Origin: Candidatus Heimdallarchaeota archaeon
GTDB lineage: Archaea; Asgardarchaeota; Heimdallarchaeia; Hodarchaeales; Hodarchaeaceae
NCBI GenBank assembly: GCA_020353515.1
Contig: CP070695.1
Location: 2,261,921 to 2,293,920 of the forward strand
Direction: 5' to 3'
DNA length: 32,000 nt
Positions 14,299 to 16,614 of the stretch are shown here, in pieces. A program made the translations under genes and the position numbers. How positions within the stretch are numbered: the first letter of the stretch is position 1; each line of letters begins with the position of its first letter. The notes beneath the pieces were generated by a model, which searched no databases, was not told the DNA's origin, and saw nothing but the letters and a program-made list of their open reading frames with translations.

Positions 14299-15054
14299 CT
14301 ATTTCATCCTATTTTCTAACTGGAGTAATTTGTTGTATAGGTCTTGTGCTGCTTTCATCTGGGCTTCTTTCTTGTTTTTCCCTTGACCTTTCCCTGTTAA
14401 CCCCTTATTTTGGTAGGTCCCCTGACATAAGTACCAATATTCTGGGTCATGATCAGGTCCCTCCCTTTTAAGTAATTGATAGGTGGCTTCAGGTATTTGC
14501 CGTTGCTGAAAAAATTCTTGAAGTCGATTTTTCGGATTGTATTCATTTTTCCCTTGGATAATATTTCCTATTTCATCATTAAGCAGAATATTGTCCATAA
14601 AATTTTCAAACAACTGTAATAAAAACGCTTGACATGGAGCTAATCCATTAGCGACATATAATGCTCCAAAAATGGCTTCAACCGCATCAGCGAGATCTTT
14701 TTCTTGAATTGTATACGCGGGTGCACAACGAAGGACAGGATCTATTTGCAATTTTTCTCCAAGTTTAGCTAATGTTGTATTTTGTACAATTTCGGCACGC
14801 TTTTTCGTCATATCTCCTTCTGTCATGATATTCTTGTTATACAACCATTCAAGAACAAGAAGATCAATAACTGAGTCTCCTAGTGTTTCAAGTCGCTGAT
14901 TGTCACTGATACTCGGATCCACTGATTTATAAGATGGGTGAGTAAGAGCTTCGATAAGTAACGGGAGAGGTAATTGTAGATTCCATCTGAGATTGAATTT
15001 TTGAAAAGCTCCAGTGGGTTGTTTCTTTAACATTAGGAAGGGCCTCTTTTTCAT
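14299..15054 (-). CDS. rnc: Ribonuclease III (class 1: RNase III catalytic domain + C-terminal dsRBD)
   Basis: Signature ETLGDSVIDLLV (consensus ERLEFLGDAVL), LADAVEAIFGALYV, and a dsRBD ending GQGKNKKEAQMKAAQDLYNKL. Confidence 0.85.
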   Translation of the reverse strand: MKKRPFLMLKKQPTGAFQKFNLRWNLQLPLPLLIEALTHPSYKSVDPSISDNQRLETLGDSVIDLLVLEWLYNKNIMTEGDMTKKRAEIVQNTTLAKLGEKLQIDPVLRCAPAYTIQEKDLADAVEAIFGALYVANGLAPCQAFLLQLFENFMDNILLNDEIGNIIQGKNEYNPKNRLQEFFQQRQIPEATYQLLKREGPDHDPEYWYLCQGTYQNKGLTGKGQGKNKKEAQMKAAQDLYNKLLQLENRMK

Positions 15055-15132: not shown

Positions 15133-16275
15133 ATGAAGGAAAGATATATGACACCAAAAACGCTGAAGGAGTATGGTTTAGAGTTTATTAACGAAATGGC
15201 CAAGGATCGAGAGGTAGCTCAACAAGAAATTGGTGTAGTTGTTTCTGGTGCCAAAAGTTCCCTTGTCAACCAAGGTCTTCCACATTTTACTTACAAAGAT
15301 TTGGAAGAATTCGTTAAAATCATCAGGAAGGAGACCTCTCGTATTGTAGATGGCGAACTGACTCGCATTACTATCAAATCTTTAGGTCGTATTCGACATG
15401 TTATCCAAAGTGATGCCACCTTTCTTCAAGAAGTAACATCTTCAGTTACCGAAGTGCAAATCCAAGAATTTGAAACCGAGATTACAAACTTAAAAGATCA
15501 AATCAGGGAGAAAAATACGCAGTTGTCTCAGCTTGAACACGAACGAGATGATATCCGTCGTGTATCTGAGGAAAATCAGGACAAAGTGAATCAATTAGAG
15601 ATGGAGATAAAAAGGTTACAACTCCAAGTTCAAAACCTTCAAGAGCAGGAGGAGCTGAGCCAAAAGAGTGTTGTAGAAATTAGGTCGGAATTAGCAGCTA
15701 AAGAGGCATTGATTGAGAAATTGAAAGAGCAAGAAAAGATCCACGAGAAAGATATTGAGGAAGCATTGGCATCTGTTGCTGAAACATATCAAATACAAGA
15801 AGATTATTATGCTCGGATGTTAGAAGAGGCGGTTCAACAACGATTAAAGCAAGTCCGCCAGGATTATGATTTGGAAATCGAAGAGATGCAAACTCGATTG
15901 AAGAATGAAATTGAACGTCATGAAGCGGACTCTAAACAACATAAAACTACAGTTTCTCGTCTTGAAGAATCTCTTGCCATGGCTGAAGCAGAACAACAAA
16001 CCCTGCAAGAAAAATTAGCTCAAGTGTATGATGAACGATCTCAACGTAATATGATTTTAGAATATACTCAGCGGTTACTCTCTACTCATCCATTGTATGC
16101 TTCAATCTTGATACTATTGAATCTTGGAGGCTCTCTGGATCTTCCTACACTCGCCATGTCTGTTGGTGCTCATCCAACGAGGCTTAAACAAATGTTACAA
16201 GAGGAATTGGTGTCAAGAAATTTGATCACTATTTCTTCTGACGATCCACCAATTGTGTATGCGAATATGGAATAA
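15133..16275 (+). CDS. Hypothetical protein: ~100-aa globular N-terminus, ~200-aa coiled coil, C-terminal winged-helix-like domain
   Basis: The middle is heptad-rich and E/Q/K-rich. The C-terminus, ILILLNLGGSLDLPTLAMSVGAHPTRLKQMLQEELVSRNLITI, looks like a wHTH. Confidence 0.4.
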   Translation: MKERYMTPKTLKEYGLEFINEMAKDREVAQQEIGVVVSGAKSSLVNQGLPHFTYKDLEEFVKIIRKETSRIVDGELTRITIKSLGRIRHVIQSDATFLQEVTSSVTEVQIQEFETEITNLKDQIREKNTQLSQLEHERDDIRRVSEENQDKVNQLEMEIKRLQLQVQNLQEQEELSQKSVVEIRSELAAKEALIEKLKEQEKIHEKDIEEALASVAETYQIQEDYYARMLEEAVQQRLKQVRQDYDLEIEEMQTRLKNEIERHEADSKQHKTTVSRLEESLAMAEAEQQTLQEKLAQVYDERSQRNMILEYTQRLLSTHPLYASILILLNLGGSLDLPTLAMSVGAHPTRLKQMLQEELVSRNLITISSDDPPIVYANME

Positions 16276-16345
16276 AGATCTTAGAACTATTCTTCAGACT
16301 CTTCATCGCCAAAAAAAAGGTTCTAACATTTATATGAAGGATATG

Positions 16346-16446
16346 GGCCGGCACGGGGAATCGAACCCCGACATGGAGGGCCACAACCTCCGAGACTACC
16401 ATTATACTCTAAGCAGAACACTGCTTAAAATTATCCTACGCCGGCC
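16346..16446 (-). tRNA. tRNA-His (anticodon GUG) with a genomically encoded G-1 and a 27-nt intron in the D-loop
   Basis: Hand-folded. Acceptor stem GCCGGCG/UGCCGGC, with G-1 opposite discriminator C73. Anticodon arm GGAGG-UUGUGGC-CCUCC. T-arm CGGGG-UUCGAUU-CCCCG. The D-arm GGAU-AUAAUGGUA-GUCU forms only after removing 16406-16432. CCA is not fully encoded. Confidence 0.85.
16406..16432 (-). other. Non-canonical tRNA intron (between D-stem position 13 and A14; boundary ambiguous by 1 nt)
   Basis: The insert is AAUUUUAAGCAGUGUUCUGCUUAGAGU. Nearly all of it folds as an ~11-bp hairpin (AUUUUAAGCAG-UGUU-CUGCUUAGAGU). Confidence 0.6.
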
Positions 16447-16473
16447 AGGGTATATGGATATATCTAAGCATGG

Positions 16474-16484
16474 TTATATTAAAA
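16474..16484 (-). promoter_or_regulatory. Candidate TATA box for tRNA-His
   Basis: TTTTAATATAA on the minus strand, 28-38 nt upstream of G-1. Confidence 0.3.
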
Positions 16485-16614
16485 TCTTTAAGAATAAAGA
16501 CTATTTCCATTGAAAAGGGAAGGAAATAAATCTCTTATGATTGGGAAGAGAAAAATTGAATGATTTAAAGAAGAGGGCACTATTCATTGAATTAAGACAA
16601 CCAGATAATTTAAG

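Follow-up and report, generated by a model that had tools for sequence, protein, structure and literature searches.

An interrupted D-arm in a predicted histidine tRNA gene raises three questions: whether the locus encodes a functional tRNA, how long the interrupting segment is, and which enzymes could remove it. The locus in question lies at positions 16446 to 16346 (minus strand) of the window, the 32,000-nt stretch of DNA analyzed here, to which all coordinates refer unless stated otherwise. The host genome, a single closed contig of 4.94 Mb with 35.8% G+C and 96% completeness, belongs to the Hodarchaeales (Asgard archaea). Collectively, the evidence supports this locus as a real, functional tRNA-His(GUG) gene with a templated G-1, a predicted D-loop intron and a relaxed splice motif.

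Gene architecture and detection

The pre-tRNA runs from G-1 (16446) to the discriminator C73 (16346), as read from the sequence, from a covariance model (R1, described below) and from ARAGORN after removal of the insert. Its elements follow in the order G-1, acceptor strand, U8 A9, GGAU, AA, 29-nt insert, U GGUA, GUCU, C26 and the remaining arms. Exon 1 (16446 to 16431) comprises G-1, the 5' acceptor strand (16445 to 16439), U8 A9, the 5' D-stem strand GGAU (16436 to 16433) and A14 A15 (16432 to 16431), and is invariant in the alignment of 10 intron-bearing orthologs. GGAU doubles as strand H5' of the splice motif, whose 5' bulge begins with A14 A15. Exon 2 (16401 to 16346) holds U16 G18 G19 U20 A21, GUCU, the anticodon arm, a 4-nt variable loop, the T-arm, the 3' acceptor strand and C73. 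The acceptor stem is GCCGGCG/UGCCGGC with a G7-U66 wobble, and the D-stem GGAU/GUCU is separated by C26 from the anticodon arm, GGAGG-UUGUGGC-CCUCC; the variable loop is AUGU and the T-arm CGGGG-UUCGAUU-CCCCG. The GUG anticodon (16384 to 16382) lies in a 7-nt loop with U33 in an otherwise standard cloverleaf. CCA is not encoded, CAU following directly after C73.

The extra G-1 stands opposite C73, as it does in 19 complete same-genus genes and in two same-order genes examined. C73 opposite G-1 is the bacterial/archaeal type of tRNA-His. Because G-1 is templated and pairs with C73, histidine identity is predicted to need no Thg1, as the initial annotation of this locus had proposed; no Thg1 was found in the genome, an absence that fits a G-1 that is transcribed and kept.

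With the gene unspliced, ARAGORN found no tRNA anywhere in the whole window and Rfam found none at its gathering score, because the insert lies in the D-loop. A permissive Rfam search gave a partial tRNA match of 27.1 bits (gathering score 29) at 16354 to 16408, which covers only the part downstream of the insert. Once the insert was removed, ARAGORN called tRNA-His(gtg), and did so even when the 27 nt chosen by the initial annotation were taken out. Model R1, built from six insert-free same-genus orthologs, matched 16446 to 16346 end to end with 82.5 bits (E 8e-17), a match far beyond chance. The initial reading of a tRNA-His with an encoded G-1 and canonical arms is therefore borne out by the sequence, ARAGORN and R1 alike.

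Across the genome, ARAGORN recognized 15 tRNA genes, all uninterrupted; when anticodon-loop introns were allowed it returned 37 calls, several of them mis-modelled and none His, and none of the Rfam tRNA matches is His. A custom scan for an anticodon arm with a GUG loop plus a T-arm recovered the window gene and one extra match, at genome position 2677033, which we rejected as a second tRNA-His and read as the long variable arm of a different tRNA. R1 matched the genome only at the window gene, and BLAST of exon 2 returned no second tRNA-His. The window gene is the only tRNA-His found in this closed, 96% complete genome, of which 11,231 bases read N; ARAGORN, Rfam, BLAST, the scan and R1 revealed no intron-less tRNA-His(GUG) elsewhere. 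The call has value for annotation, as without it the genome would seem to have no histidine tRNA.

Six further partial Rfam tRNA matches on the genome contig (G000:C1) look like genes broken by non-canonical introns: 4558779–4558834 (anticodon GCA), 4009406–4009457 (UGU), 2333110–2333166 (UCU), 1375078–1375166 (anticodon unread), 2313552–2313612 (CCC) and 4920635–4920697 (UAG). One abuts a run of N. Having been read by eye only, these matches (Cys, Thr, Arg, Gly, Leu) were not taken up as local cases of D-loop introns.

The tRNA-His gene sits in a 340-nt intergenic gap. On one flank lie an RNase III gene and a 380-aa ORF that has no Pfam match, and on the other genes for cobalamin adenosyltransferase and methylmalonyl-CoA mutase. 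An A/T-rich element, AAAGA plus UUUUAAUAUAA, lies 28–43 nt upstream of G-1 (16489 to 16474, minus strand) and may be an archaeal promoter; orthologs carry boxes resembling it at similar spacing. On the other side, 28 nt downstream of C73, a T8 run (16318 to 16311, minus strand) may serve as a transcription stop. Both are plausible transcription signals, as read from the sequence. A separate block, AGAGAUUUAUUUCC (minus-strand reading, 16522–16535), is conserved in six species, recurring at loci L002, L003, L004, L013 and L014. It lies upstream of both tRNA-His and the divergent cobalamin adenosyltransferase ORF, about 80 nt from each, and may be a BRE/TATA promoter for one of them. A plus-strand ORF at 16253–16513 (86 aa, TTG start) that overlaps tRNA-His lacks a Pfam match and was taken as spurious. 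The RNase III gene, a 251-aa ORF at 14299–15054 (minus strand), has RNase III and dsRBD domains (PF14622, PF00636, PF00035) and is of the bacterial/eukaryal type. Archaea in general are not known to carry RNase III of this type.

Length and boundaries of the insert

BLAST of exon 2 identified orthologs with 90–100% identity in 19 of the 21 other same-genus genomes. Six same-genus species carry insert-free orthologs with the D-arm GGAU-AAYGGUA-GUCU and hence a 7-nt D-loop, a reading shared by all complete genes without a D-loop insert (8/8). Nine orthologs have an insert at the same place as the window gene, and each of these ten genes is exactly 29 nt longer than the insert-free form; the ten align without gaps. 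The R1 alignment gives the same figure, with 33 nt replacing four D-loop model positions for a net insertion of 29 nt. As in protein-spliced introns, removal of the insert restores a conserved tRNA for which insert-free orthologs exist.

These orthologs bear directly on whether the insert is an intron at all. The splice motif described below is weak, as might be expected if the insert were retained as an expanded D-loop or if the locus were a decaying pseudogene. Such a reading is nevertheless extremely improbable. It would leave this genome with no other tRNA-His that we could find, and it conflicts with the existence of insert-free orthologs and with exons that are 90–100% conserved in the genus and whose acceptor, anticodon and T stems carry compensatory substitutions. 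No functional tRNA is known to have a 36-nt D-loop.

The initial annotation had rightly recognized a D-loop intron and gave it 27 nt (16432 to 16406) between U13 and A14, holding that the cloverleaf forms only when these are removed. These boundaries were not confirmed, nor was the exclusivity: removal of 29 nt yields an equally good cloverleaf in ARAGORN. By the same program the 27-nt version is also acceptable as tRNA-His, and those 27 nt nearly coincide with the 11-bp hairpin of the minimum-energy fold. The orthologs separate the two versions. Only 29-nt removal reproduces the 7-nt loop AAYGGUA, to which all complete orthologs without a D-loop insert conform; 27-nt removal leaves a 9-nt loop, AUAAUGGUA, that is absent from all orthologs. 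Because the insert-free loop has 7 nt and the ten insert-bearing genes are exactly 29 nt longer, the intron is most likely 29 nt. At the 27-nt junctions, moreover, bulge-helix-bulge (BHB) geometry worked out by hand sets UAGG (8–11) against intron UAGA with 2/4 central pairs, and the two outermost hairpin pairs are not kept in orthologs (alignment columns 16–17). An intron of 27 nt is thus very unlikely.

With A's at its borders, a 29-nt intron can be placed at 13/14, 14/15 or 15/16 without altering the mature RNA; accordingly, 16403–16431 and 16404–16432 yield a mature tRNA identical to that from 16402–16430. BHB geometry picks the cut at 15/16, so that the predicted intron is 16430 to 16402 (minus strand). 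Its removal would create the junction GGAUAA↓UGGUA (arrow, joined ends), and tRNA reads would contain GGAUAAUGGUAGUCU. With 27-nt boundaries, mature reads would instead contain GGAUAUAAUGGUA.

Hairpin, splice motif and splicing enzymes

Within the insert lies a 9-bp hairpin, h' (UUUAAGCAG/CUGCUUAGA; 16429 to 16408, minus strand), closed by a UGUU loop (16420 to 16417). Covariation among the 10 orthologs is strong: 87.8% of cells are paired and 7/9 pairs change on both sides, compared with about 40% pairing in slid registers, and 0 of 500 shuffles reached the observed covariation score. The minimum-energy fold of the precursor keeps the acceptor, anticodon and T arms and folds the insert into an 11-bp hairpin with the UGUU loop. 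This is the hairpin of about 11 bp described in the initial annotation, although conservation is limited to the inner 9 bp and the outer two pairs compete with the splice motif.

We evaluated the motif at fixed geometry with the BHB definition of PMC4090602 and the methods of Goswami et al. 2026 (bioRxiv 10.64898/2026.10.13.758758): two 3-nt bulges on opposite strands, 4 bp apart and each cut after its second base, with at least one flanking helix (h or h') of at least 2 bp. The central helix of the window gene would be formed by GGAU (10–13) and H3' GUAU (16407 to 16404, minus strand), with a G-U pair, a G.A mismatch, an A-U pair and a U-G pair (3/4 pairs). The 5' bulge is A14 A15↓U (arrow, predicted cut); the 3' bulge, directly after H3', is A A↓U16 (16403, 16402↓16401). 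The 9-bp h' provides the flanking helix. Judged by eye, GGUA offers no partner for U8 A9, and an outer exon helix h is absent, which makes this a relaxed, HBh'-type bulge-helix-bulge motif. The same code applied to canonical introns of the genome gave 4/4 central pairs, an outer helix of 5–7 bp and shift 0 in nine cases; some canonical intron sites had 3/4 central pairs only.

The spacing of the bulges agrees with the motif in each of the ten genes (AA↓N and NN↓Y). The bulges form only if the weak central helix GGAU/GUAU forms, and the minimum-energy fold shows no such bulges. Central pairing among the ten genes ranges from 2/4 to 4/4, the latter (AUUC) only in G008 and 2–3/4 in the other nine. 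At the predicted register 75% of cells are paired versus 22–55% in slid registers, the 5' strand being invariant throughout; because that strand is the invariant D-stem, covariation cannot test this helix. The cloverleaf and minimum-energy folds, which absorb part of the motif into the 11-bp hairpin, are favored over the BHB conformer by about 5–7 kcal/mol.

The initial annotation could not draw a canonical BHB, and our enumeration of all cut-site pairs in the precursor agrees: a strict BHB was rejected, as no 4/4 helix with flanking helices gave a sensible tRNA. Free enumeration of BHB-like sites produced many spurious ones, such as cuts through the anticodon or T arms, that outrank the proposed site. 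The published Asgard census (Goswami et al. 2026, bioRxiv 10.64898/2026.10.13.758758) cautions that the relaxed motif class is common by chance. The argument for an intron is carried by the rigid spacing in ten diverged genes and by the insert-free orthologs, not by motif score alone.

A central helix that is marginal in most orthologs (2–3/4 pairs in 9/10) and energetically disfavored, next to a hairpin that is the only strongly constrained part, could also mean that the insert is excised without GGAU/GUAU pairing, the enzyme reading the hairpin and single-stranded flanks (bulge-helix-loop-like) or needing an extra factor. Spacing is rigid in all ten genes, however, with 1 nt before h' and 4 + 2 nt after it, the arrangement that a BHB requires, and no slid register pairs as well as the predicted one. 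Broad-specificity enzymes, moreover, cut relaxed motifs (PMC5829648). We consider helix-independent excision very unlikely and favor the relaxed BHB.

The genome encodes two EndA paralogs of 183 and 212 aa, both with the two domains PF01974 and PF02778. The nearest matches of the 183-aa protein are the catalytic alpha subunits of A. pernix (E 1.9e-43), S. tokodaii and P. aerophilum. The protein retains the catalytic residues Y121, H129 and K159; in PDB 3AJV_B the residue aligned with H129 has been mutated to Ala. Its residues 9–80 align gap-free to A. pernix 14–85, the region of the crenarchaeal specificity loop, and K39 (IRKPKS) lies opposite A. pernix K44 (VEKPRG), numbering counted in the alignment. 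The 212-aa protein has no histidine at the catalytic-histidine position and is therefore probably a structural beta subunit. The endonuclease, the type of which the initial annotation had left for inventory, is thus assigned by sequence to the crenarchaeal two-subunit kind, (alpha-beta)2, with a specificity-loop lysine. Closest relatives of the EndA gene occur in MAGs labelled Hodarchaeota, Heimdallarchaeota or Promethearchaeota. Kaneta et al. 2018 (PMC5829648) report an (alpha-beta)2 EndA with the L1/CSL loop in Asgard archaea, as well as cleavage by A. pernix EndA of D-loop introns with relaxed HBh' motifs. RtcB is also encoded in the genome.

These elements combine into a model that we regard as highly probable: a sole tRNA-His gene with templated G-1 and a 29-nt D-loop intron in an HBh'-type motif, processed by (alpha-beta)2 EndA and RtcB. 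The primary transcript would carry G-1 paired with C73. In the precursor, GGAU (10–13) would pair with intron GUAU rather than with GUCU (22–25), forming a weak central helix of four positions flanked on one side by the A14 A15↓U bulge and the 9-bp h', and on the other by the A A↓U16 bulge. EndA would then cut in both bulges (A15↓U and A↓U16), and RtcB would join the exons into a body of 72 nt plus G-1, its D-loop reading AAUGGUA. The identity of the gene, the length and position of the insert, the covariation of the hairpin and the presence of the enzymes were shown directly; where the enzyme cuts, that the intron is excised in the cell and that the weak central helix takes part are inferences.

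Intron history, published systems and histidine identity

Intron sequences are alike in distant members of the genus, as in G013 (AUAUGAGCAG...UGCUCGUAG) versus G017 (AUACGAGCAG...UGCUUGUAG). Genes with and without the intron are interspersed on an RtcB tree; for example, G005, with the intron, is sister to G019, without it (97/99 support). This interleaving tentatively suggests a single old gain followed by several precise losses, on the strength of one marker whose tree has an anomalous long branch. We rejected the RtcB tree as a species tree, given that very long branch and many unsupported forks, and drew no count of gains and losses from it. RtcB proteins of six same-genus genomes (L130–L134 and L137; G010, G004, G002, G013, G018 and G020) are only 46–50% identical to the rest, and the remaining ones are 76–93% identical to RtcB of the window genome. 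Replacement of the ligase, a paralog or a very broad genus could each account for the divergent RtcB. Transposition of the intron was also considered and rejected: BLAST of the intron against the whole genome, alone and with context, returned only itself.

A second intron, of 39 nt, lies further 3' (24/25) in two orthologs without the D-loop insert, and G008 has both introns. The 39-nt intron has a good BHB, with 4/4 pairs by hand in the central helix GUAG/CUAU, and was located in same-genus species at L015:1501–1611, L017:1501–1611 and L018:1501–1640 (all minus strand) and also at L025. The L025 gene, a second copy in G013, has no recognizable 5' acceptor strand; either the copy is truncated or one more intron interrupts it.

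Two studies have already described tRNA genes of Asgard archaea that are heavily interrupted (Valentin-Alvarado et al. 2024, PMC11291895; Goswami et al. 2026, bioRxiv 10.64898/2026.10.13.758758). According to Goswami et al. 2026, D-arm inserts are missed by annotators and often lack canonical motifs. The published inserts resemble the window intron in length (about 20–30 nt), in non-canonical position, often within the D-arm, in being missed by standard finders and in having been found via compact relatives; only about one-third lie at canonical BHB motifs. Those studies center on Atabeyarchaeia, Freyarchaeia and Jordiarchaeia and give fewer than 1 insert per gene for several Heimdallarchaeia lineages; in the window genome, ARAGORN finds only 15 uninterrupted tRNA genes. 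Neither Hodarchaeales nor tRNA-His is named in their searched text. D-arm introns with relaxed motifs are already known in Asgard archaea, and the window intron is a further example, representing no new kind of element or mechanism.

Closer functional parallels come from crenarchaea. A D-loop substrate of A. pernix EndA, described in PMC5829648 citing Hirata et al. 2011, likewise has a relaxed motif without an outer helix, and the enzyme is of the same type as that of the window genome, with its A. pernix-like alpha subunit and specificity-loop lysine. Unlike that intron, which lies at 20b/21, the window intron lies at 15/16 on the 5' side of the D-loop, its central helix uses the 5' strand of the D-stem and has a mismatch, and its cleavage is predicted only. 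Non-canonical and multiple introns of Thermoproteales (Sugahara et al. 2008, as reviewed in Yoshihisa 2014, PMC4090602) are similarly BHB-type, outside 37/38 and associated with a heterotetrameric EndA. In Thermoproteales, similar introns recur in different tRNA genes and have been read as transposition, whereas the window intron has no paralog in its genome. What the present locus adds is a well-resolved Hodarchaeales case in which insert-free orthologs fix the boundaries exactly, the hairpin covaries and the central helix is marginal. Close species that differ in the same 29-nt intron constitute a natural experiment on intron loss and on the motif tolerance of an Asgard endonuclease.

G-1/C73 is present in all Hodarchaeales-type genes, namely 19 complete genes of the genus and 2 of a sister family in the same order. 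In tRNA-His(GUG) from three other families of the class, position 73 is a eukaryote-like A in 25/25 genes and CCA is usually encoded; the base at -1 in those 25 genes is T in 12, A in 11, C in 1 and G in 1, with no preference for G. The A73 loci were L086, L089, L108, L139–L153, L157, L158, L160, L161, L164 and L166, compared with Hodarchaeales-type loci L001–L018, L085 and L087. Searches of 83 genomes of the class gave no match above cut-off to Thg1 (PF04446) or Thg1C (PF14413), and the M. acetivorans control was detected. The literature searched yielded no paper that mentions both Heimdallarchaeia and tRNA-His. In some alpha-proteobacteria and protists, tRNA-His is charged without G-1. It is conceivable, though we consider it less likely than not, that G-1:C73 of the window gene marks one side of a histidine-identity switch within Heimdallarchaeia, in which the A73 lineages would charge a G-1-less tRNA-His or add G-1 by a non-Thg1 enzyme. 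If so, the A73 families would use either a histidine identity that dispenses with G-1 or a G-1-adding enzyme from outside the Thg1 family.
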